NCBI GenBank assembly: GCA_029289095.1
Contig: JARFUG010000002.1
Location: 50,880 to 114,879, forward strand
Reading direction: 5' to 3'
Length of the DNA: 64,000 nucleotides
From: Desulfuromonadales bacterium
GTDB taxonomy: Bacteria > Desulfobacterota > Desulfuromonadia > Desulfuromonadales > JACZKF01
How positions within the stretch are numbered: position 1 is the first letter of the stretch; each line of letters begins with the position of its first letter. The notes under the pieces are model-generated. The model did not search any database. It worked only from the letters and a program-made list of their open reading frames with translations, and was not told the DNA's origin. A program made the translations under genes and the position numbers. Shown piece by piece: positions 15,653-51,511 of the stretch.

Positions 15653-15745
15653 GGATAGCTCCCTCGAAAATCAGGTAAAAAGCCAAAGGCAAAAGGTTGA
15701 ATGCGATACCTCGGGCCTGGGGCCTTTGGCCTCGCGCCTGATTGA

Positions 15746-19067: not shown

Positions 19068-19472
19068 ATGAGCCTCAGTCTCACCCTGGCGGTGGACGAT
19101 CTCGATCGCACCGAGCGCTTCTACCGCGACGTGCTGCATTTCGCGGTGCAGCGCCTCGTCCCCGCCCAGGGGCGTCCGCCGGTGCTCCTGCTGCGCGAGG
19201 GGGACGCCACGATCCTCTTCAGGGAGAAGGAGGTCCTCGAGGCCCTGCACCCAGCCGCCTTTCAGCACCTCGACCGCCACCAGAGAGGGACGGGGATGAC
19301 CATCGAATTCACGGTGGGCGACCTGCGCCCCGTCAGCCGTTCCCTCTTCCGGCGCGAGTGGCCCGTCCTCTACGAACTGGAAGACGACGAGCACAACCGC
19401 CGCGAACTCTGGCTGCACGACCCAGACGGGTATGTGCTGGTGCTGATGGAGGAGGGGGGGGCAAAAGGATGA
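19068..19472 (+). CDS. VOC (glyoxalase/bleomycin-resistance/dioxygenase) family protein
   Basis: 134 aa with DLDRTERFYRDVLHF and WLHDPDGYVLVL. Confidence 0.75.
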   Translation: MSLSLTLAVDDLDRTERFYRDVLHFAVQRLVPAQGRPPVLLLREGDATILFREKEVLEALHPAAFQHLDRHQRGTGMTIEFTVGDLRPVSRSLFRREWPVLYELEDDEHNRRELWLHDPDGYVLVLMEEGGAKG

Positions 19473-19498
19473 AGACAGAAGACGGAAGACAGATGACA
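19471..19498 (+). repeat. Tandem heptamer array GAAGACA GAAGACG GAAGACA GATGACA
   Basis: Four 7-nt units. They start at the last base of the VOC gene's TGA stop codon (19470-19472). Confidence 0.8.
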
Positions 19499-19504
19499 GA
19501 TTCT

Positions 19505-19598
19505 CTCCCCCTCCTGGATCAGGAGGGGGTTGGGGGGTGGTAGAGATTGGCAAGGACCTTACCACCCCCAGCCCCTCCTAAAACAGGAGGGGAGAAAA
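19505..19598 (+). repeat. REP-like three-hairpin element, copy A
   Basis: H1 is CCCCCTCCTG-GAT-CAGGAGGGGG. H2 is GGGGGTGGTA-17nt-TACCACCCCC. H3 is CCCCTCCT-AAAAC-AGGAGGGG. The element is near-identical to copies at 23421 and 49877. Confidence 0.9.
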
Positions 19599-19637
19599 TC
19601 AAATGACGCCGCGAAGCGGCAGCTTAAAGGAGTCTGA

Positions 19638-20630
19638 ATGAGTGTATTGAAAGGACGGGGCGTTCCCGACCGCAGTGAGAACGACGGGACCGGGCTGGCG
19701 TGCAGGGGGGAAGTCCTGCACGTCCTCCATCTGCTGTCGCGCAGATATCTTCATGGGAAAGAGGAGGCGGTGCGCCTCTCGCTCATCGCCCTGCTCGCCG
19801 AAGGGCACCTGTTGCTCGAGGACATCCCCGGGGTCGGCAAGACGACGCTCGCCCTGGCCCTCTCCCACGCGCTGGGACTTTCCTTCGGGCGCATCCAGTG
19901 CACCAGCGACATCCTCCCCTCGGACATCACGGGGCTATCGATTTTCGACCGGGACGAGAGCCGCTTCCGCTTCGTTCACGGGCCAATCTTCCACAACCTC
20001 GTCCTCACCGACGAGATCAACCGCGCCATGCCCAAGACTCAGAGCGCCCTTCTCGAGGCGATGGAGGAGAGGCGCGTGACGGTGGAGGGAAAGACGTACC
20101 GTCTGCCCGACCCGTTCCTGGTGGTGGCCACCCAGAACCCCTCGGAGCAGGTGGGAACCTTTCCCCTGCCCGAATCGCAGCTCGACCGTTTTTTGATCAG
20201 CGCGGGTCTCGGCTATCCCCCTGCCGAGATCGAGAAGGCGATCATCCGCGGCGGGAGCATCCGCGAAGAGATCGAGAAAATTCCCCCGATCCTCGGCGCC
20301 GAGCAGATCGCCGCCGCGCGCCGCGCGGTGCGCGAGCAGATCCATCTGTCGGAGAAGGTCATCGACTACATCCACGCCCTGGTCTGCGCCACTCGCGAAC
20401 ACCGCTTCATCGCCTCGGGGATCTCTCCCCGCGGCGCCATCAGCCTTGCCGATGCGTCGAAGGCCGCAGCCTTTCTTGAGGGGCGCGACTACGTCGTTCC
20501 CGAGGATGTAAAGGCGCTGGCCGTCCCCGTCGGCGCACATCGCCTCATCCTGCGCGCCGAGCATGAACCGCTGAAGAAGAAGGAGGTGCTGAGATCGATC
20601 GTCGCCGATCTGCCGGTTCCCCGGGGGTGA
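19638..20630 (+). CDS. MoxR-family AAA+ ATPase
   Basis: 330 aa with Walker A EDIPGVGKTTLA, LVLTDEINRAMPKTQSALLEAMEE and ATQNPSEQ. AAGGAG lies upstream. Confidence 0.9.
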   Translation: MSVLKGRGVPDRSENDGTGLACRGEVLHVLHLLSRRYLHGKEEAVRLSLIALLAEGHLLLEDIPGVGKTTLALALSHALGLSFGRIQCTSDILPSDITGLSIFDRDESRFRFVHGPIFHNLVLTDEINRAMPKTQSALLEAMEERRVTVEGKTYRLPDPFLVVATQNPSEQVGTFPLPESQLDRFLISAGLGYPPAEIEKAIIRGGSIREEIEKIPPILGAEQIAAARRAVREQIHLSEKVIDYIHALVCATREHRFIASGISPRGAISLADASKAAAFLEGRDYVVPEDVKALAVPVGAHRLILRAEHEPLKKKEVLRSIVADLPVPRG

Positions 20631-21493: not shown

Positions 21494-23390
21494 GACGCTC
21501 CTCAATCTGCTCGCCTACGGCGTTTCGTTGCTCGGCTTTCTCCCTCTGGCCGCGCACCTCGATGCTCCGGCGCTTGTTGCCTTTCCGCTGGCGCTCGTTG
21601 TCGGCGCCGTCTGGGACCGCCGGGAGGAATTCCCCCTCAAGCCCGGTTTCGCCACCCTCTTCACCGTGGCGGCCTTCGTCTTCTACGCCGCGCAGGTCAG
21701 CCGCGACCACCTCATCGAGCCGGCGGTCAATCTTCTCGTCCTGCTGCTGGCGGTGCGCCTTCTGAGCGCCAAGGGGGGGCGGGAATATCCCCAGATCTTC
21801 ACCCTCTCTCTCTTCGCCCTGGCCGCATCGTCGCTGCTGAGCCTGGGGATCGCCTACCTCTTCTACCTGGCGCCGATGATCGTGGGGATCACCGCCGGTC
21901 TTGTTCTTCTTTCCTTCTACAAGGTCGATCCGGAGGCGGTTCTGGAGCGCCGGGAGCTGCGCCGGCTCTCGGGGGTCTTTTTCGCCCTCCCCGCGACATC
22001 TCTTCTTCTGATGCTCGCCTTTTTCTTCATTCTACCCCGGACGCAGCAGCCGCTGTGGAATTTTCTTCAGCCCACGGCGGCGGCGAGCGGACTGAGCGAC
22101 CGGGTCATCCCCGGTTCTCTGGCCGGCGCCCTGGAGGAGAGACGTCCGGCGTTCCGCGTCCAGAGTCCTCCCCTCCCCCCGCAGGAGCTCTACTGGCGCG
22201 GCGTCGTCCTCAATCACCTGGACGATCGCGCCTGGGAGCGCAGAACGCCCCCCCGGGAAAGGACGCGCGTTGAAGGGGGGGAGGAGGTCCGGCAGACTTT
22301 CTTCCCCGAACCGGGTCCTTCCCAGTACCTGCCGCTCCTCGACCTCCCCCTCGAGCTGACGGGGGTGCGTCACCAGCGGGATGGGGACCTCGTCTTCAGC
22401 GGACGGCCGAGGGAGCGCCGCCTGAGCTACGAAGGGGTCTCGCTCTTCGGCGGCCGCCTGGTGGCGGAGGACGGGGTCGATCGCGAATTCTACCTGCAAC
22501 TGCCGCAGCAGATATCACCGCGGGTGGAGGCGGCCATCTCCCGGATCGTCTCAGCGGCAGCGGGGGATCGGGAGACGATCGCCGCGCTGGAAGATTTCTT
22601 CATTGAGCGCCGCCTTACCTATTCCCTCGACGCGGGGCTCCACGCCGAGGACCCGGTCGATCACTTCCTCTTCGAGAGCAGGCGGGGATACTGCGAGCAC
22701 TTCGCCACATCCTTCGTGCTGATGCTGCGCCGGGCCGGGATCCCCGCCCGGCTGGTCGGCGGCTACTACGGCGGGCACTACAACGCGATGGGCGGATACT
22801 ACCTGGTGAACGAGAGCCATGCCCACCTGTGGGTCGAGGCGCTGGTCGACGGACGGGAATGGGTGCGCCTCGACCCGACGACCCTCTCCCACAACGCCGC
22901 GCAGGCCTTCGGGGGGTCGGGACTGAACTGGCGACGGGGCCTTCTCGATGCCGTCGACCACTTCTGGAACCGCATCGTCATCACCTACGACCTGCAGCAG
23001 CAGATCGAGCTCTTTCGCAAAGCCGGGGAACGGGCCGCCCCCGAACGATGGAGCGCCCCAAGCCTTCCATCGGCGGCCGCCCTGGCCGGAGTCGCACTCA
23101 TCGTCGCGCTCCCTTTCATGCTGCGCGGCGCAGGGAACCTAAGAGGGCGCGAGCAGCGCCTTCTGCGGCGCTACCTGAACCTGGTGCGCCGGCGTCACAA
23201 ACTGGCGGAGATCCCCCCCTCGATGGGGCTGCAGGAGCTCGCCGAGCAGGTCGACGACCCTGCCTGCCGGCGCTTCGCCGCCATCTTCGGAGGGGCGATC
23301 TACCACGACAGACCGCTGTCGGAGGAGGAGTTCAGGGAGTGCAGGGAGGTGATGAAAAGGGTGGGGAGGAGGGGCAAGGATGAGGGATGA
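21480..23390 (+). CDS. Membrane transglutaminase-like protein (TgpA/DUF3488-type), with an intact catalytic Cys-His-Asp
   Basis: 636 aa. It has multiple N-terminal TM helices, then RRGYCEHFATSF, SHAHLWVE and VRLDPT. Confidence 0.85.
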   Translation: MVRLKTLLNLLAYGVSLLGFLPLAAHLDAPALVAFPLALVVGAVWDRREEFPLKPGFATLFTVAAFVFYAAQVSRDHLIEPAVNLLVLLLAVRLLSAKGGREYPQIFTLSLFALAASSLLSLGIAYLFYLAPMIVGITAGLVLLSFYKVDPEAVLERRELRRLSGVFFALPATSLLLMLAFFFILPRTQQPLWNFLQPTAAASGLSDRVIPGSLAGALEERRPAFRVQSPPLPPQELYWRGVVLNHLDDRAWERRTPPRERTRVEGGEEVRQTFFPEPGPSQYLPLLDLPLELTGVRHQRDGDLVFSGRPRERRLSYEGVSLFGGRLVAEDGVDREFYLQLPQQISPRVEAAISRIVSAAAGDRETIAALEDFFIERRLTYSLDAGLHAEDPVDHFLFESRRGYCEHFATSFVLMLRRAGIPARLVGGYYGGHYNAMGGYYLVNESHAHLWVEALVDGREWVRLDPTTLSHNAAQAFGGSGLNWRRGLLDAVDHFWNRIVITYDLQQQIELFRKAGERAAPERWSAPSLPSAAALAGVALIVALPFMLRGAGNLRGREQRLLRRYLNLVRRRHKLAEIPPSMGLQELAEQVDDPACRRFAAIFGGAIYHDRPLSEEEFRECREVMKRVGRRGKDEG

Positions 23391-23412
23391 GGGATGCAGA
23401 GGACGGAGGACT
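23378..23412 (+). repeat. Tandem heptamer array GGATGAG GGATGAG GGATGCA GAGGACG GAGGACT
   Basis: Five 7-nt units. The transglutaminase stop codon TGA (23388-23390) lies inside unit 2. Confidence 0.8.
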
Positions 23413-23420
23413 GCCTTTGT

Positions 23421-23512
23421 CTCCCCCTCCTGGATCAGGAGGGGGTCGGGGGGTGGTAGAGGTTGGCAAGGACCTTACCACCCCCAGCCCCTCCTAAAAT
23501 AGGAGGGGAGAA
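23421..23512 (+). repeat. REP-like three-hairpin element, copy B
   Basis: It has the same three hairpins as copy A. The differences are confined to the linker and the H2/H3 loops. Confidence 0.9.
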
Positions 23513-23534: not shown

Positions 23535-23623
23535 ATGACGGCCGCGCCAGCGGCCTGACGCCGCCGAAGGCGGCTGACCAATGACACCGCGCAGCGGTTG
23601 ACGCGCGGCAGCGGCGGCTGCGC
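23535..23623. repeat. Array of short GC hairpins, each preceded by TGAC
   Basis: The sequence reads ATGAC-GGCCGCgccaGCGGCC, TGAC-GCCGCCgaaGGCGGC, TGACcaATGAC-ACCGCgcaGCGGT, TGAC-GCGCGGCAGCGGCGGCTGCGC. It lies between convergent genes. A single unit (ATGACGCCGCGAAGCGGC) also follows copy A at 19603. Confidence 0.65.
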
Positions 23624-23632
23624 AAAGCGCCC

Positions 23633-24904
23633 TCAGTCCTCTGCCTTCCTGGGCGGCCTGCGCCGTCTGCGCCGTCGGCGCTTCTGGGCCGCGGGGGGCT
23701 CGGTCTCTTCTGCCGAAGACGCTCTTCCCTTGAGCTTTTGATGCCAGGCCGCGAGGAGTTTTCCGTCCTCTCCCGTCGCTTCGCTCCAGAGAGTGAGAAG
23801 TTGCAGGGCGTTGGGTGTCTGAGGGTGCTGCAGGAAGCGGCGTTCGCCGCGCTGGCCAGGGCCGCGCCGCAGGCGGAAGATGCCGATGAGGAATTCTCTG
23901 GCCTGGTGACGGATGCCGGCGGCGACGTGGAAGTAGCGGCAATGGGGCGAGAGGACGAGTCCGGCGATGCGTACAACGTCGGTGACGGTCGCCTGGGGGG
24001 GGCATGCGCGCAGAAAGCGGGAGAGATAGAGGGCAGCGAGGGCGAAGGGCTCTTCGATGGGAGTCCCGCCGGCGGTTCGCTCGTCGAGCTTTTCAAGCAG
24101 GGCGAAGGTCGCCTCGTCCCCCTCGTGGCCGGCCAGCAGATGGGGAAGAAGCCCCATGGAGGCGGCGCTTCGCAGGACCTCTCCGGCCACTTTGTGGCGG
24201 AAGAGCTCCATGATCTCTTCGCGGATGCGGGCGGGGGCCGCCTCGGCGATGAGGGGAGCGCGGGCGTAGATCCCCTCGCGGGTCTGCTCGTCGAGAGAGA
24301 AGCCGAGACGGGCAGCGAACTCGAGAGCCCGCAGCATTCGCACGGGATCTTCGGTGAATCGCACCAGCGGATCGCCGATGATGCGCAGACGCCGGGCCGC
24401 CAGATCTTCCAGCCCCCCAACATAGTCGATGACGGAGAAGTCGCCGATGTCGTAGAAGAGGGCGTTGATGGTGAAATCCCGACGAAAGGCATCCTCCTGC
24501 GGAGTGCCGAAAACATTCTCGACGAAGTGGCCGTGATCCTCTGGGCTCTCCGGAAGATCGTCCGCCGTCGCCATGCGGCGGAATGTGGCGACCTCGACCA
24601 CCTCTTTGCCGAAGCGCACGTGGGCCAGACGAAAGCGCCGCCCAATCAGGAAACAGTTGCGGAAGAGCTTCTTCACCTGCTCGGGGGTGGCGTCGGTGCC
24701 GACGTCGAAGTCTTTCGGCGTGCGCCCCAGAAGAAGGTCGCGCACACTCCCTCCGACCAGGTAGGCCTTGAAGCCGCTGCGGTGCAGGCGGTAGAGGACC
24801 TTGAGCGTTTCCGGGTCGATGCTCTGGCGGGAAATCGGGTGTTCGGCGCGGGGGAGGATGACGGCCGGGGGATAGCTGGGAGTGATGGCGTGCTCTGGTG
24901 TCAT
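23633..24904 (-). CDS. pcnB: Poly(A) polymerase I
   Basis: 423 aa with LKVLYRLHRSGFKAYLVGGSVRDLLLGRTPKDFDVGTDATPEQV and RRFRLAHVRFG, plus a basic tail KRRRRRRRRPPRK. Confidence 0.85.
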   Translation of the reverse strand: MTPEHAITPSYPPAVILPRAEHPISRQSIDPETLKVLYRLHRSGFKAYLVGGSVRDLLLGRTPKDFDVGTDATPEQVKKLFRNCFLIGRRFRLAHVRFGKEVVEVATFRRMATADDLPESPEDHGHFVENVFGTPQEDAFRRDFTINALFYDIGDFSVIDYVGGLEDLAARRLRIIGDPLVRFTEDPVRMLRALEFAARLGFSLDEQTREGIYARAPLIAEAAPARIREEIMELFRHKVAGEVLRSAASMGLLPHLLAGHEGDEATFALLEKLDERTAGGTPIEEPFALAALYLSRFLRACPPQATVTDVVRIAGLVLSPHCRYFHVAAGIRHQAREFLIGIFRLRRGPGQRGERRFLQHPQTPNALQLLTLWSEATGEDGKLLAAWHQKLKGRASSAEETEPPAAQKRRRRRRRRPPRKAED

Positions 24905-40346: not shown

Positions 40347-40490
40347 GTGAGGGGTGAGGAGTGAGGAGTGAGGAGAAAAGCTCTGTCCTCAATCCGATGT
40401 CCTCACGATATATAGAAAATCAGGCACAGGGAGTTTCAGGCTCGGAGCAAAGAGGTTTTGACGCCTCACTCCTCACGCCTCACTCCTCAC
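40347..40490. repeat. Intergenic element with inverted heptamer-array arms, between glmU and glmS
   Basis: The left arm is GTGAGGG GTGAGGA GTGAGGA GTGAGGA (40347-40374). The right arm is GCCTCAC TCCTCAC GCCTCAC TCCTCAC (40463-40490). The unique centre is 88 nt. The glmU stop codon lies inside the right arm. Confidence 0.85.
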
Positions 40491-41860
40491 TTTTTCTTCA
40501 GCTTCCACCCTTCCTTGTTGACCTGGGGGGTCCTGGACAGCGCGAGGGAGTCGGGGGGGACGTCCTTGGTGATGGTCGAGCCTGCGGCGATGAGGCTGCC
40601 GCGGCCGATGCGCACCGGAGCGACGAATTGGGTGTCGCTGCCGACAAAGACGTCGTCCTCGATGGTCGTCTTGTGTTTGTTGACGCCGTCGTAGTTGCAG
40701 GTGATGGTGCCGCAGCCGATGTTGACGTTGCGGCCGATCTCGGTGTCGCCGAGGTAGGTGAGGTGGCTCGCCTGGGACTTTTCGCCGAGAACCGCCTTTT
40801 TGGTCTCGACGAAGTTGCCGAGCTTGTTGTTTCCGGCAAGGACCGTCCCGGGCCGCAGGTGGGCCATGGGGCCGATGGCGCACTTGTCGCCAATACGGGA
40901 CTCGGCCATGACCGAACCGGCTTTGAGATGGACGCTGTCGCCGATGGCGCAGTCGGTGACGATCACGCCGGGCTCGACGATGCAGCCGCGCCCCAGACGT
41001 GTGGCGCCGCGCAGGTGAACACCGGGATGAATGATGGTATCAGGACCGATCTCCACTGCCGGATCGATGTAGGCCGCGGCCGGGTCGATGAAGGTGACGC
41101 CGCCGCGCATGAGCTCTTCGTTGATGCGCCGGCGCATGAGGGCGCCGGCCTCGGCGAGCTGCACCCTGTCGTTGATCCCCATCGTTTCGGCAGGCTCGGC
41201 GACCGCCAGGGCGCAGACCTTCTTTCCGGCGGCGCGGGCGACGGCCACAACGTCGGTGAGATAGTATTCGCCCTGTGCATTGTCGCGGCCCACCCCGCGA
41301 AGAGCCTCGAAAACGAAGGGGGTTTCGAAGGCGTAGATGCCTGTATTGATCTCGCGAATCGTCTTTTCCCGCGCCGTGGCGTCCTTCTCCTCGACGATGC
41401 GAAGAACCTCCTCTCCCTCGCGTACGATGCGCCCGTAACCGTGGGGATCGCTCATTTCGGCGGTCAGGATGGTGACGGCGGCCCCCTGGGTATGGTGATA
41501 GTTCAGAAGACGCTCGAGGCTCTGGAGGCGCAGCAGTGGAACATCGCCACACAGAAGAAGAAGGGCGCCGGCAAAGCCCTCGAGTGCAGGCCGTGCGCAC
41601 AGCAGGGCGTGTCCGGTGCCGAGCTGCTCCTCCTGCCGGACAAACCGCATTCCGCTGTCTCCGAGAGCCTTTTCCACGTCGTCGGCGCCGTGGCCGATCA
41701 CCATGACCGCCGGTTCGCAGCCGAGTTCACGCGTCAGGCGGGCAGGCCAGGCGGCCATCGGAAGACCGGCCACATGGTGGAGCACCTTGGGCAGTTCCGA
41801 TTTCATCCGGGTTCCCTTGCCTGCGGCAAGAATGACGGCGGCCCGCTGTTTCGTGTCCAT
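40487..41860 (-). CDS. glmU: Bifunctional UDP-N-acetylglucosamine pyrophosphorylase / glucosamine-1-phosphate N-acetyltransferase
   Basis: ORF trimmed to MDTKQRAAVILAAGKGTRM at 41860, with GGAGGGG upstream. The C-terminus has left-handed beta-helix hexapeptide repeats. Confidence 0.95.
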   Translation of the reverse strand: MDTKQRAAVILAAGKGTRMKSELPKVLHHVAGLPMAAWPARLTRELGCEPAVMVIGHGADDVEKALGDSGMRFVRQEEQLGTGHALLCARPALEGFAGALLLLCGDVPLLRLQSLERLLNYHHTQGAAVTILTAEMSDPHGYGRIVREGEEVLRIVEEKDATAREKTIREINTGIYAFETPFVFEALRGVGRDNAQGEYYLTDVVAVARAAGKKVCALAVAEPAETMGINDRVQLAEAGALMRRRINEELMRGGVTFIDPAAAYIDPAVEIGPDTIIHPGVHLRGATRLGRGCIVEPGVIVTDCAIGDSVHLKAGSVMAESRIGDKCAIGPMAHLRPGTVLAGNNKLGNFVETKKAVLGEKSQASHLTYLGDTEIGRNVNIGCGTITCNYDGVNKHKTTIEDDVFVGSDTQFVAPVRIGRGSLIAAGSTITKDVPPDSLALSRTPQVNKEGWKLKKK

Positions 41861-45728: not shown

Positions 45729-45813
45729 TTCAAGATTCAAGATTATAAGGCAGGCTCTGCCTTTGTCTTCAGTCCTCTGTCTTCCGTCCTCTGTCCTCTG
45801 GCTCCTGGCTCCT
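45729..45813 (-). repeat. Tandem heptamer arrays abutting the stop codon of the REC-PilZ-GAF gene
   Basis: On the plus strand, TTCAAGA TTCAAGA TTATAAG occupies 45729-45749 and is followed by the hairpin GGCAGgctCTGCC. Then comes GTCTTCA GTCCTCT GTCTTCC GTCCTCT GTCCTCT GGCTCCT GGCTCCT (45765-45813). On the minus strand this array (AGGAGCC x2, AGAGGAC...) begins 1 nt after the TAG stop at 45815-45817. Confidence 0.85.
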
Positions 45814-45814
45814 G

Positions 45815-47790: not shown

Positions 47791-48825
47791 GTGAAAGGCC
47801 ACCTTCTGACGGCGCCCGGCCGCACCGAATTCCGAGAGATTCTCTCCCCATCGCCAGCTCCGGGTGAAATCGTCGTCGATATCGCCGCCGCCCTGACCTG
47901 CGGAACGGACTTGAAGGCATGGCGCAGGGGACACCCCAAGATCCCCTTCCCCTCTCCCTTCGGCCACGAGTTTTCAGGCATCGTCTTCGCGGCGGGCGAG
48001 GGCGCCCCTTTCGCCCCGGGAGAGGCGGTCATGGCGGTCCATTCCGCCCCCTGCGGAGAGTGCTTCTACTGCGTCGCCGGCCAGGAGAATCTCTGCGAAT
48101 CGATCATGGATACCAAAGTCCTCGGGGCCTTCGCCGAGCAGATCCTCCTTCCGGCCCACATCGTCGCCCGCAACGTCTTCTCCAAGCCCGATCACCTCAG
48201 CTTCGAGGAGGCGGCTTTTCTGGAGCCTCTCTCCTGCGTCGTCTACGGCCACCGCCTCCAGCCGATCCGCCCGGGCGAAACGGTGCTGATCATCGGTTGC
48301 GGTCCCATCGGCCTTCTCTTTCTCCTTCTGGCGCGAGCCAAAGGGGCCGGCCGGATCATCGTCACCGGACGCCGTCCGGTTCGCCTCGAACTCGCCCGCG
48401 CCCTCGGCGCCGACGTGGTGGTCGACGTTTCGCACGACGATGCGCTCCCCCTGATCCGCGAGCTGACCGGGGGACGCGGCGCCGATCAGGTGATCGAATG
48501 CACGGGGCTGCCGGAGGTCTGGGAGGCGACGCCGGGCATGGTCCGCAAGGGGGGACGCATCCTCCTTTTCGGAGGGTGCCCGGCGGGGACGCAGGTTGCC
48601 TTTGACACCTACCGTCTCCACTACGACGAGATCACGCTTCAGGGGGCCTTTCACTTCACCCCGGCAGCGGTCGCCGAGGCGCGCCGGCTCCTCGTCGACG
48701 GCGCCATCGACGTCTCTCCCCTCATTTCCGGCCGATTCCCCCTGCCGGATGTCGAGAAAGCGCTTCGCTGTTTGCAGCGCGGAGAAGGGATCAAGTACGC
48801 CATCGTCCCGGGGGAGATGGAATGA
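47791..48825 (+). CDS. Zinc-dependent alcohol/polyol dehydrogenase (MDR family)
   Basis: It has a GTG start. The motifs are GHEFSGIV, the structural-Zn Cys cluster CGECFYCVAGQENLC and the Rossmann motif GCGPIG. Confidence 0.85.
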   Translation: MKGHLLTAPGRTEFREILSPSPAPGEIVVDIAAALTCGTDLKAWRRGHPKIPFPSPFGHEFSGIVFAAGEGAPFAPGEAVMAVHSAPCGECFYCVAGQENLCESIMDTKVLGAFAEQILLPAHIVARNVFSKPDHLSFEEAAFLEPLSCVVYGHRLQPIRPGETVLIIGCGPIGLLFLLLARAKGAGRIIVTGRRPVRLELARALGADVVVDVSHDDALPLIRELTGGRGADQVIECTGLPEVWEATPGMVRKGGRILLFGGCPAGTQVAFDTYRLHYDEITLQGAFHFTPAAVAEARRLLVDGAIDVSPLISGRFPLPDVEKALRCLQRGEGIKYAIVPGEME

Positions 48826-49874
48826 AGGTAATTCCCAAAACGATGAGGGCCGCGGTCGTTCACGACTTCGGCGACGTGCGCATCGAAGAGCGCCCCGTCC
48901 CGTCCATCGGTCCGAGGGAGATCCTTGTCAAAACGGCGGCGTGCGGCGTCTGCTCCGGCGACGTCATGGACTGGTACATCCGCGCCAAGGCCCCCCTGGT
49001 GCTGGGACACGAGCCGGCCGGCGTCGTGGCGGCGGTCGGAAGCGAGGTGAACGCCTTCGCTCCCGGCGACCGGGTCTTCATGCACCATCACGCCCCCTGC
49101 TTCGTCTGCGAGCGATGCCGCCGCGGGCTCTACTCCCTTTGCCCCGTCTGGAAGAAGAGTCGCCTCGATCCCGGCGGGATGGCCGAGTACGTGCGGGTTC
49201 CCGAGGAGAACCTCGCTGACACCCTGAAGATCCCCCAGGGGGTCGATTTCGAGGCCGGCTCCCTGGTTGAGCCGGCCGCCTGCGCCGTCAAGGGGGTCCG
49301 CAAGTGCAGCCTGCAGCCAGGGGAGACGGTCCTCGTGACAGGGCTGGGGGTCATGGGGATGCTCAACATCATGACGGCCCGCGCCTTCGGCGCCGCCCGG
49401 GTGATCGGCGCCGACCTCAACGCCTGGCGCCTGGCGAAGGCGCTCGAGTTCGGAGCCGAGGCCGTTATCGACGTCTCGAAGCAAGACCTGGCGGCGCGCA
49501 CCCGCGAACTGACCGGAGGCGAAGGGGCGCACCGCGTCATCATCGGCCCAGGCACCCCCCAGGCGATGCTCGACGGCATCCGCGCCTGCGCCCCTGGCGG
49601 GACGGTCCTCTTCTTCACCCCCGCCCCCCCGGGGCGCCTTCTCGAGGTGGAGCAGCATTACCTCTATTTCAACGAGATCACTCTGGCCAGCTCCTACTCG
49701 TGCGGCCCGTATGACACCCGCGACGCTCTCGATCTGATTTCCCGCGGAGTGATCCGGGCCAAGGATCTGGTGACCCACCGCTTCCCTCTCGAGGGCGCCG
49801 GTGAAGCCTTCCGAATCACCGCCGAAGGAGGTGAGTCGCTCAAAGCGCTGGTGGTGCTGGATGAAGAAGAATGA
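48822..49874 (+). CDS. Zinc-dependent alcohol/polyol dehydrogenase (MDR family), second paralogue
   Basis: It overlaps the upstream gene with ATGA. The motifs are GHEPAGVV, CFVCERCRRGLYSLC and GLGVMG. Confidence 0.85.
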   Translation: MKVIPKTMRAAVVHDFGDVRIEERPVPSIGPREILVKTAACGVCSGDVMDWYIRAKAPLVLGHEPAGVVAAVGSEVNAFAPGDRVFMHHHAPCFVCERCRRGLYSLCPVWKKSRLDPGGMAEYVRVPEENLADTLKIPQGVDFEAGSLVEPAACAVKGVRKCSLQPGETVLVTGLGVMGMLNIMTARAFGAARVIGADLNAWRLAKALEFGAEAVIDVSKQDLAARTRELTGGEGAHRVIIGPGTPQAMLDGIRACAPGGTVLFFTPAPPGRLLEVEQHYLYFNEITLASSYSCGPYDTRDALDLISRGVIRAKDLVTHRFPLEGAGEAFRITAEGGESLKALVVLDEEE

Positions 49875-49876
49875 AA

Positions 49877-49969
49877 CTCCCCCTCCTGGATCAGGAGGGG
49901 GTTGGGGGGTGGTAGAGATCGGGAGCAGACCTTACCACCCCCAGCCCCTTCTAAAATAGGAGGGGAAAA
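49877..49969 (+). repeat. REP-like three-hairpin element, copy C
   Basis: It starts 3 nt after the ADH stop and has the same H1, H2 and H3. The H2 loop differs from the other copies. The H3 left arm is CCCCTTCT, which gives a U-G wobble on the plus-strand RNA only. Confidence 0.9.
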
Positions 49970-50010: not shown

Positions 50011-50568
50011 ATGAAAGAGAAAACCCTACCCCCCCTTTCCTGCGACTGGATCCCCGGCGACGGGCGTGAACAGACGAGCGGCGTGAGCTGCGACTGGGCG
50101 CAGGCCGGTCCCGCGGCGGCGCAGGAGAACACGAGCCGCCTTCACCGTTTCGCCGAGTCCGGCTGGGAGGGGATCGAGGCCGAGCGCTACAAGGCCGAAG
50201 ACGGCGGCTGGGCCGCCATCGCCCGCCATGTCCTGGTCGGCGGGCGGGGCGAGAGCGCCCGCTTCGACCTGCGCTATTTCGAAATCGCTCCCGGAGGCCA
50301 TTCCTCCCTGGAGAAACATGTCCACGAACACGTCGTCGTCTGCATCCGCGGGAAGGGTGAAATTCTCCTGGCAGGCGAAGTTCGCGAGATGAACTTTCTC
50401 GACACCGCCTACATCGCTCCCGACGACCCCCATCAGCTCATCAACCCTTTTGAGGAGCCCTTCGGCTTTTTCTGCATCGTCGACCACGACCGTGATCGTC
50501 CGCGTGGACTCGATGAAGACGACCTGCGTTCATTCTCGGCAGAGGCAGCCGCAAAAATACGCCGCTAA
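50011..50568 (+). CDS. Cupin domain protein
   Basis: 185 aa with a cupin motif region, GGHSSLEKHVHEHVVVCIRGKG...DPHQLIN. The RBS is weak, so the start is uncertain. Confidence 0.65.
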   Translation: MKEKTLPPLSCDWIPGDGREQTSGVSCDWAQAGPAAAQENTSRLHRFAESGWEGIEAERYKAEDGGWAAIARHVLVGGRGESARFDLRYFEIAPGGHSSLEKHVHEHVVVCIRGKGEILLAGEVREMNFLDTAYIAPDDPHQLINPFEEPFGFFCIVDHDRDRPRGLDEDDLRSFSAEAAAKIRR

Positions 50569-50650: not shown

Positions 50651-50736
50651 CTTCTCCGATAAGAGCAAAACCGGAGCAATCCGGTGACGCAGAACCACGG
50701 GTCCCACGCGGACAGCCGAGTCGCCGAAGAGAGGAT
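50651..50736 (+). ncRNA. GEMM-I-like cyclic-dinucleotide riboswitch aptamer (c-di-GMP-I family; c-di-GMP versus 3',3'-cGAMP selectivity unresolved)
   Basis: The sequence GAGCAAAACC-GGAGCAAUCCGG-UGACGCAGAACC-ACGGGUCCCACGCGGACAGCCGAGUCGCC matches the remembered GEMM-I pattern: GCAAACC, then hairpin 1, then GACGCAAAGCC, then hairpin 2, then CAGCCGGGUUACC. An intrinsic terminator follows. Confidence 0.7.
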
Positions 50737-50765
50737 CCAGCTTTCACCACAAGAAAAGCTGAAGG

Positions 50766-50795
50766 CCCATCTTCGCCCTTGAAGATGGGTTTTTT
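50766..50795 (+). terminator. Intrinsic terminator (riboswitch expression platform)
   Basis: CCCATCTTC-gccct(t)-GAAGATGGG followed by TTTTTT, about 78 nt before the LuxR-family gene ATG. Confidence 0.85.
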
Positions 50796-50872
50796 CGTTT
50801 CTTCATGAACGGCGCACGTGAAACAGACCTCTTGCTACGATTTCACCAGCCGTGTTCTCTGGAGGGGAAACG

Positions 50873-51511
50873 ATGAAGATCACTCTGGTACTTGCGGACG
50901 GACACCCGCTCTTTCTCGACGGGCTCGAACGCTTCTGCGCGCAGCAGGAGGATTTCGAAGCGGTGGCGCGCTGCCTCACCGGCGAAGAAACGCTTCAGGC
51001 CATTCTTCGCCACGGCCCCGACATTCTCGTCCTCGACAACGCCTTGGGGGGTATGAAGGGATTTGAGCTTCTCAAAAGGCTTCGTCACTCAGAGGTGCCG
51101 ACGCGGGCGATTCTTCTCACAGACGTTCTCGACGATGAAACGGCGATGGAGGCGATCCGCCTGGGCGTGCGCGGAGCGGTGCTGAAAAATATGCCTCCAG
51201 AGCGCCTCGCCCAGTGCATCCGTAAGGTGCATTCGGGGGGAAAATGGCTGGAGCTTGACTCACTCAGCCGCGCTGTCGAGAAGCTGCTGCACCGCGAAGC
51301 CGGAGTCCGTCGCATCTCCACCATCCTCACTCCCCGGGAGATCGAGATCGTGCGCCTCGTCGCCAGGGGGATGAGCAACCGCGAGATCGGCGCCAATCTT
51401 CTGATCACCGAGGGGACGGTGAAGATCCACCTGCACAACATCTACAAAAAGCTCGGCATCGACAACCGGGTCGACCTGACGCTGTACGCCCAGAAGAAGG
51501 GGGTCGCCTAA
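50873..51511 (+). CDS. LuxR/NarL-family two-component response regulator
   Basis: ORF trimmed to MKITLVLADGHPLF at 50873, with GGAGGGG upstream. It has a REC domain and a C-terminal HTH, LTPREIEIVRLVARGMSNREIGANLLITEGTVKIHLHNIYKKLG. Confidence 0.9.
   Translation: MKITLVLADGHPLFLDGLERFCAQQEDFEAVARCLTGEETLQAILRHGPDILVLDNALGGMKGFELLKRLRHSEVPTRAILLTDVLDDETAMEAIRLGVRGAVLKNMPPERLAQCIRKVHSGGKWLELDSLSRAVEKLLHREAGVRRISTILTPREIEIVRLVARGMSNREIGANLLITEGTVKIHLHNIYKKLGIDNRVDLTLYAQKKGVA

Follow-up and report, generated by a model that had tools for sequence, protein, structure and literature searches.

Three near-identical elements of ~93 nt, all on the plus strand, recur within the window analysed here, a 64-kb stretch of DNA. 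What are these elements, and where did they come from? The initial annotation described them as REP-like modules of three consecutive hairpins, always located 3' of a plus-strand gene and under selection as plus-strand RNA structures. Our analysis favors a different reading, to which we assign a probability of roughly 0.7: that the ~93-nt elements are gene-less, MITE-like derivatives of a small selfish element carrying a DUF559 gene, with the encoded nuclease moving or copying them in trans.

Three near-identical elements lie between genes of the window

The elements, referred to as copies A, B and C, are positioned as follows.

Copy A, 19505-19594, plus strand: complete miniature (left unit, DUF559 remnant and right unit, as detailed below), flanked by a VOC gene (19068-19472) and MoxR (19638-20630).
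Copy B, 23421-23510, plus strand: complete miniature, with the TgpA stop (23390) on one side and a convergent PcnB-like gene (23633-24904, minus strand) on the other.
Copy C, 49877-49967, plus strand: complete miniature, flanked by a Zn-ADH gene (48822-49874) and a cupin gene (50011-50568).

The existence of three near-identical elements in a single orientation was confirmed, with patterns describing the first two hairpins (H1 and H2) each matching three times in the 64 kb, as compared to 0.00-0.01 matches expected from shuffled sequences. Copies A and B share 96% identity across 98 nt, while copy C diverges mainly in the loop of H2 and carries a single stem change (CCCCTTCT), in line with what had been noted about the location of the differences between copies. 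The neighboring genes, too, are as initially described. The VOC/glyoxalase gene ends at 19472 and a period-7 array (19471-19500) precedes copy A, whose downstream neighbor is a MoxR-(288 aa)-TgpA operon. TgpA ends 30 nt upstream of copy B, which is located between convergent genes (the next one encoding a poly(A)-polymerase-like protein), and the Zn-ADH gene ends 2 nt upstream of copy C. The statement that the element always lies 3' of a plus-strand gene holds for all three copies, but these are only three cases (P = 0.125), and copy B sits between convergent genes.

The nearest named homologues of the window's MoxR protein stem from Desulfuromonadales and Geobacteraceae. A public Logan contig of the A-B region (3895 bp) has its two ends within copies A and B, indicating that the repeat breaks assemblies.

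The window harbors further short repeats. Tandem arrays of about four heptamers occupy intergenic positions 19471-19500, 23378-23412, 15709-15739, 40347-40375 with 40464-40491, and 45755-45814 (array sequences GAAGACA, GGATGAG/GAGGACK, CCTCGGG and CTCTGTC), and one inverted heptamer pair, (GTGAGGA)4 ... (CCTCACT)4, is found between two minus-strand genes. These arrays resemble heptanucleotide-repeat families of Geobacter metallireducens (PMC2700814). We rejected the heptamer array as a part of the element, since arrays also occur in the window without it. Short G+C hairpins preceded by TGAC (e.g. TGAC GCCGC GAA GCGGC) follow copy A (one hairpin, 19604-19620) and copy B (about four in a row, 23536-23597); one of them is conserved at site A in a relative devoid of the element (L199), and some score as weak terminator-like sites on the minus strand. 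Elsewhere in the window, a c-di-GMP-I riboswitch (50654-50728; 53 bits at a gathering score of 35) is followed by a terminator-like hairpin (50761-50794) and a gene for a LuxR-type response regulator (50852-51511).

The elements consist of two ~42-nt units in inverted orientation

Dissection of the three copies revealed each of them to be an inverted pair of one unit of ~42 nt, composed of a G+C-rich hairpin (CCCCCTCCT, loop, AGGAGGGGG), 2-3 nt and a G-rich tail, GGGGGTGGT. A hidden Markov model of this unit returned one match per strand in every window copy. The parts are the following.

Copy A left unit, 19507-19515, plus strand: pyrimidine arm (Y), CCCCCTCCT.
Copy A left unit, 19521-19529, plus strand: purine arm (R), AGGAGGGGG.
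Copy A left unit, 19533-19541, plus strand: G-rich tail, GGGGGTGGT, the mirror image of R; 9/9 triads canonical; also the 5' arm of H2.
Copy A right unit, 19561-19592, minus strand: tail 19561-19568, purine arm 19572-19579, pyrimidine arm 19585-19592; 8/8 triads canonical.
Copy B left unit, plus strand: Y 23423-23431, R 23437-23445, tail 23449-23457.
Copy B right unit, 23477-23508.
Copy C left unit, plus strand: Y 49879-49887, R 49893-49901, tail 49905-49913.
Copy C right unit, 49934-49965: one C-to-T change (CCCCTTCT), leaving 7/8 triads.

Of the H1, H2 and H3 pairings of the initial annotation, H1 and H3 have identical stem sequences, and H2 corresponds to the pairing of the two unit tails. 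Owing to the identity of H1 and H3, both strands have a single nested hairpin as their minimum-energy fold, predicted at -61.3, -66.0 and -58.5 kcal/mol for copies A, B and C, respectively; the three-hairpin fold comes to -57.0, -64.5 and -56.6 kcal/mol and is thus only 1.5-4.3 kcal/mol worse. Covariation does not distinguish between the two models, as all four arms have one sequence; when ten tail-to-tail doublets were aligned with MAFFT, the H1 region was out of register. An AGGAGG sequence that had been highlighted as sequestered in the H3 stem simply represents the purine arm of the hairpin.

We scanned metagenome contigs for the junction between the 3' arm of H1 and the 5' arm of H2 (AGGAGGGGGNNGGGGGGTGGTA). 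At least 120 contigs matched, with G+C contents ranging from 33% to 70% among the matches listed. A genome scan with the H2 pattern gave 72 matches, most of which were unrelated hairpins, and located the family in a Desulfuromonadaceae MAG, Oryzomonas japonica and a Thioploca MAG only. In public genome, metagenome and viral loci, units occur as singles, as tail-to-tail pairs of the window type, or as pairs of opposite polarity with a 10-100 nt spacer. The 32 apparently intragenic units delivered by a crude ORF caller were mostly artefacts of open reading frames in the units themselves. In two different relatives, units are placed directly upstream of the ribosome-binding site of ahcY (L128:2641-2779 and L178:529-611), with differing internal sequences.

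The G-rich tail mirrors the purine arm

When read antiparallel, the tail GGGGGTGGT that follows the purine arm AGGAGGGGG yields G.G-C and T.A-T triads at every position, and the six window units reach 9/9, 9/9, 9/9, 8/8, 8/8 and 7/8 canonical triads. For a single window tail, 9/9 triads are attained by 3% of same-composition shuffles, so that the triplex case rests on covariation across arm variants. When pyrimidine/purine hairpins were sought in the fetched loci irrespective of the tail, other arm sequences emerged, each accompanied by its own matching mirror tail (AGGAGAGGGG, GGGAGGGG, AAGGGGGGA, AAGGGGAGGG and GGGGGAGG, among others). Over ten arm classes, compatibility with the own tail was 0.969, as compared to 0.81 +/- 0.03 with permuted tails (0/20000 permutations reached the observed value), meaning that the triad compatibility of the third strand is kept when the arm sequence changes.

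Judged by its sequence, the unit is a class II intrastrand triplex motif like BoxC of E. coli, a repeat of E. coli and other proteobacteria that is identical with the PIT elements and TM_ECO (Hoyne et al. 2000; Holder et al. 2015, PMC4666352). The tail could fold antiparallel onto the purine arm of the same DNA strand as a purine-motif third strand, and this triplex fold would presumably matter in vivo. The ITxF criteria (PMC4666352) call for a Y stem, a loop, an R stem, a loop and a reverse-Hoogsteen stem on one strand, with stems of 6-15 nt, at most one mismatch and loops of 1-6 nt. The window units have stems of 8-9 nt and loops of 5 and 3 nt; five of the six are free of mismatches and one has a single mismatch.

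In E. coli, repeats of the BoxC/PIT/TM type were already known in the early 1990s; they are present in hundreds of genomes, with no origin, partner protein or function found (PMC4666352). Among them, a stable DNA triplex in vitro has been established for TM_ECO alone, by NMR (Holder et al. 2015, PMC4666352). According to the same study, it shows no strand bias, has 5 of its 23 copies in inverted pairs and varies in presence among strains; TM_ECO/PIT has neither promoter nor terminator activity and no function was found, and a triplex was not detected in vivo (PMC4666352). TM_ECO is also reported as missing from Salmonella (PMC4666352). With reference to Semerad & Maher 1994, the paper states that DNA, unlike RNA, forms purine-motif triplexes (PMC4666352). 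The genome paper on G. bemidjiensis describes a family of 'palindromic sequences' whose consensus has the layout of our unit. TM_ECO, rebuilt from PMC4666352, gave matches of 100% identity in E. coli at a median of 18 places per genome, and we inspected one E. coli BoxC pair directly.

What the window repeat has in common with BoxC/PIT/TM_ECO is the order, on one strand, of pyrimidine arm, loop, purine arm, short loop and mirror-image G-rich tail (the class II purine motif), as well as being G+C-rich, intergenic, without strand bias, arranged in singles and inverted pairs, and variably present between relatives. In contrast, the stems of the E. coli repeat are CCCTCNCCC/GGGNGAGGG/GGGNGAGGG and those of the window repeat CCCCCTCCT/AGGAGGGGG/GGGGGTGGT, and the TM_ECO pattern CCCTCNCCC N3-6 GGGNGAGGG N3 GGGNGAGGG does not occur in the window elements. 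Moreover, pairs in the window are joined tail to tail (hairpin-tail...tail-hairpin), whereas the inspected E. coli pair is of opposite polarity, and a link to a nuclease gene, as set out below, is not described in the BoxC/PIT/TM_ECO literature. The window repeat is a new sequence member of the BoxC/PIT kind rather than TM_ECO itself.

A DUF559 nuclease gene is enclosed by units in related loci

In one metagenome locus (L128), a 124-aa DUF559 ORF lies between two doublets. Searching the ORFs of all fetched loci with this protein returned 12 DUF559 ORFs (nine of them non-redundant), each with units no more than 400 nt away and mostly on both sides, as opposed to none in 66 unrelated control loci (0/66). 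Their layout reads hairpin-tail, 0-35 nt, ATG, DUF559 coding sequence, tail-hairpin, and the right unit itself encodes the end of the protein: the last codons, ACC ACC CCC AGC CCC TCC, specify TTPSPS, and the stop codon falls into the linker or the hairpin loop. In a protein-first test, 5/5 independent DUF559 genes were flanked by units, in five unrelated gene neighborhoods, and the C-terminus was TTP, TTPxPS or TTPQPPP in 70 of the best 120 homologues, the sampling behind these counts being biased in that DNA loci were picked by an exact 22-mer and each protein set derives from one subfamily.

As to the identity of the nuclease, it matches Pfam DUF559, NCBIfam PRK09767 (the YcjD equivalog) and PDB 3hrl. 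The gene product of the full-length relatives belongs to the Vsr/DUF559 fold group (YcjD-family, PD-(D/E)xK), which includes the homing endonuclease I-Bth0305I (PMC3424549, PMC3239194). The 64-kb window contains no DUF559 gene. A non-exhaustive survey of the literature identified no paper linking DUF559 or YcjD to these repeats, and searching papers and supplements for the element sequences returned nothing relevant; the association is apparently unreported.

Several further observations concern the gene and its surroundings. Many DUF559 homologues are found on contigs of 500-1300 bp, about one element in size, as expected if flanking units break assemblies. At L099:7730-8959 (minus strand), a DUF559 domain together with its flanking units lies in frame within a queC-like ORF, with a 410-aa frame open throughout; this is either a real in-frame insertion or a disrupted gene. 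In a recurrent variant of the unit (L083, L087, L091, L111, L116 and L122), the pyrimidine arm has G instead of its only T (CCCCCGCCTT), which produces a G.A mismatch in the hairpin, and the commonest TM_ECO type (the 'mm' types) has an analogous change (CCCTCGCCCC). The variant may be relevant to a Vsr-like, mismatch-recognising nuclease.

Among known mobile genes, the closest parallel is with free-standing Vsr-like EDxHD homing endonuclease genes (I-Bth0305I, PMC3239194), which share with the present element a small gene for a nuclease of the Vsr/DUF559 group, selfish insertion and presence/absence polymorphism. Unlike these, the DUF559 element is without intron or intein, is flanked by structured inverted repeats and has many gene-less copies.

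The units also bring to mind REP/REPIN families, spread by RAYT, an HUH Y1 transposase recognising hairpins on single-stranded DNA. Like REPs, they are short, extragenic, imperfect palindromes that come as singles and inverted doublets and break assemblies, and one small gene flanked by the repeats is the presumed partner in either case; as a first label for a dispersed palindromic repeat, 'REP-like' was fair. However, the gene flanked by units encodes a DUF559 nuclease of the PD-(D/E)xK/Vsr fold, not a Y1 transposase, the repeat itself encodes the C-terminus of that gene's product, and a mirror-repeat tail is not a REP feature. Beside the units in 1.39 Mb of fetched loci, no RAYT-like ORF was detected in what is a weak test, with an E. 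coli sequence as the query. Mobilisation by a RAYT is, in our assessment, the least probable of all explanations considered here. The one weak match of the RAYT query was to an unrelated Cognataquiflexum locus.

The window copies are internal-deletion derivatives

While lacking the gene, all three window copies retain a piece of the DUF559 reading frame.

Copy A, 19543-19581, plus strand: DUF559-frame remnant, GAG ATT GGC AAG GAC CTT ACC ACC CCC AGC CCC TCC TAA = E I G K D L T T P S P S stop.
Copy B, 23459-23497, plus strand: DUF559-frame remnant, E V G K D L T T P S P S stop.
Copy C, 49922-49954, plus strand: DUF559-frame remnant, G A D L T T P S P F stop; frame broken upstream by a 1-nt indel.

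In copy A, the remnant takes in the loop of H2, the right tail and, within H3, the Y-type arm. Translated in the ACC ACC frame, this copy reads V-E-I-G-K-D-L-T-T-P-S-P-S-stop, as compared to L-E-E-I-K-G-G-D-L-T-T-P-S-P-S-stop in a real gene (L211/P0173), which ends LEEIKGGDLTTPSPS*. Since the window's 'H2 loop' and right unit still read EIGKDLTTPSPS-stop, the copies are internal-deletion derivatives of a nuclease-bearing element. Oryzomonas rubra has a 99-nt miniature next to a full-length element; the miniature matches 44/46 positions of both the left 46 nt and the right 46 nt of that element. The left junction, at which GGTGGTA meets GAG(A/G)T(T/C)G, is common to A, B, C and the MAG copies, implying one deletion and subsequent spread of the miniature form.

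Sharing terminal inverted repeats with an autonomous element and having lost the interior, the copies resemble MITEs in this respect. As in MITEs, both ends are kept, one junction recurs in several copies, and a miniature resides beside its full-length parent in Oryzomonas rubra; unlike in MITEs, the autonomous partner has no recognisable transposase, and no target-site duplication is evident at the window copies.

Homing endonuclease genes decay by deletion, and the three copies might accordingly be viewed as independent decayed insertions of the nuclease gene at the end of a homing cycle, with the short form being immobile. Other lineages do possess miniatures with different junctions (L118, L132 and L215), as this would predict. 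Yet, the shared left junction of A, B, C and the MAG copies and the 96% identity of A and B at unrelated sites point to one deletion followed by spread, and we regard independent decay as unlikely.

A classical MITE, moved by a DDE transposase via terminal inverted repeats and carrying the DUF559 gene as a passenger, is a further alternative, for which the Desulfuromonadaceae MAG GWC2_58_13 provides a case in point: here, the same doublet is embedded in a ~183-nt MITE with 22-nt inverted ends of its own (CTGATTAACACTAATCTTCCGC) and 7-8 bp target duplications, namely ATTGAGA, AAAAAGA and TTCCTTTT (L009:2722-2904; also L011, L012, L064, L125 and L174). The window copies, however, lack those outer ends and show no target duplication, no transposase gene is associated with units in the fetched loci, and the translational fusion of DUF559 and unit, conserved in two sequence families, is unexpected for a passenger. 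We therefore consider this scenario highly improbable.

Site occupancy and orientation argue against an RNA module

To place the insertions in a comparative frame, we turned to three relatives with MoxR proteins 88%, 85% and 78% identical to that of the window. All keep the gene order VOC-MoxR-DUF58-TgpA-PcnB and lack copies A and B. Site A is represented by an intergenic region of 103, 40 and 0 nt and site B by one of 95, 69 and 17 nt, respectively; no units were found in these syntenic loci (~12 kb). By this comparison, the elements at sites A and B are best seen as recent insertions. No target-site duplication is evident at A, B or C, and the empty sites of the relatives are too diverged to define junctions. 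ATGAC and AGGAC, which flank copies A and B, respectively, were rejected as unproven duplications, not being adjacent to the ends of the element.

At the family level, 45 members lie between co-directional genes, 23 in sense and 22 in antisense orientation, and placement between co-directional, convergent and divergent genes follows baseline proportions (P = 0.54). The closest homologues, in the Desulfuromonadaceae MAG, are oriented antisense, 5' of genes or between divergent genes, and diverged copies contain uncompensated stem mismatches. A terminator scan found no U-tract or terminator-like site on the plus strand at the elements, Rfam searches at gathering and permissive thresholds gave nothing beyond generic matches to long hairpins (miRNA precursors), on both strands, and no tRNA or tmRNA was found.

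These data bear on the reading put forward initially, according to which three hairpins, cotranscribed with the upstream gene, stabilise its 3' end, attenuate read-through or bind a protein and are selected as RNA. The predicted folds are very stable (-57 to -66 kcal/mol; z-scores of -5 to -5.8), each window copy follows a plus-strand gene in the same orientation (copy C starting 2 nt past the stop), and E. coli REP hairpins are known to protect 3' ends. Against this stand a minus strand that folds equally well or better, the lack of a U-tract and of an Rfam family, MAG copies that are antisense or 5' of genes, the absence from syntenic relatives and a conserved mirror tail, of the DNA type, that has no role in an RNA hairpin; PIT elements, for their part, are devoid of terminator and promoter activity (PMC4666352). 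Two of the outcomes that the initial annotation had named as speaking against its claim, random orientation with respect to transcription (23:22 across the 45 family members) and non-compensatory stem changes (in diverged copies), were found. The argument drawn from the stem change in copy C, a U-G wobble on the plus strand and an A-C mismatch otherwise, carries no statistical weight, as one C-to-T change cannot but yield a wobble on the one strand and a mismatch on its complement. Selection for an RNA structure of the plus strand is hence not supported and very unlikely.

A similar gene-repeat fusion in enterobacterial ycjD

In E. coli K-12, the DUF559 gene ycjD adjoins TM_ECO no. 9 and ends ...TCA CCC TCT CCC TGA within a decayed pyrimidine arm; the ycjD-BoxC junction of this strain is degenerate. 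Among the best 120 enterobacterial YcjD homologues, 60 have a C-terminus of exactly xSPxPSP, typically LPSPRPSP*, which back-translates to the tail-GA-arm sequence of BoxC (b-GA-a) with the stop in the loop. In DNA of Enterobacter asburiae, the ycjD homologue continues directly into a canonical BoxC doublet. The fusion of gene and repeat is thus present in two sequence families. At L204:2200-2440 (E. coli K-12), part of the ycjD 3' end is present a second time (GGAGACGGTGCTGGAGAATATTC...), located between ycjD and the TM_ECO copy that precedes fabI, which suggests a past rearrangement at this junction.

A more general proposal would be that YcjD-family DUF559 proteins are dedicated partner enzymes of BoxC/PIT-type repeats from Enterobacteriaceae to Geobacterales, and that they define a hitherto unrecognised, nuclease-driven class of mobile elements with hairpin-plus-third-strand ends, whose miniatures are the repeats catalogued since the 1990s. 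We advance this extension tentatively and at somewhat less than even odds.

Proposed origin of the elements

Under the favored reading, that of gene-less derivatives of a DUF559 element, the full-length form is ~0.5 kb in size, with the DUF559 endonuclease gene between two inverted units of ~42 nt. An internal deletion has removed the sequence from just past the left tail through to the twelfth-last codon, whereupon the two tails pair as H2, and the miniature form itself has multiplied after this one deletion, as suggested by the common junction of A, B and C. A DUF559 nuclease supplied by a full-length copy elsewhere in the genome would then act in trans on the folded ends, copying or moving the element by a process that could be homing-like or nick-primed. 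The association may also run in reverse, with nuclease genes homing into pre-existing repeats and never mobilising them. The RNA hairpin formed upon transcription would be a by-product.

In an annotation of the window, the elements are best labelled repeats or remnants of mobile elements rather than regulatory RNAs. Beyond this locus, the DUF559 link gives the long-unexplained BoxC/PIT-type repeats a candidate partner enzyme and makes their origin testable. Should the link hold, a single small protein (YcjD or a Geobacter homologue) together with a 40-nt oligonucleotide would suffice for a direct test, and a function would be assigned to a protein family that is very widespread but so far without one.
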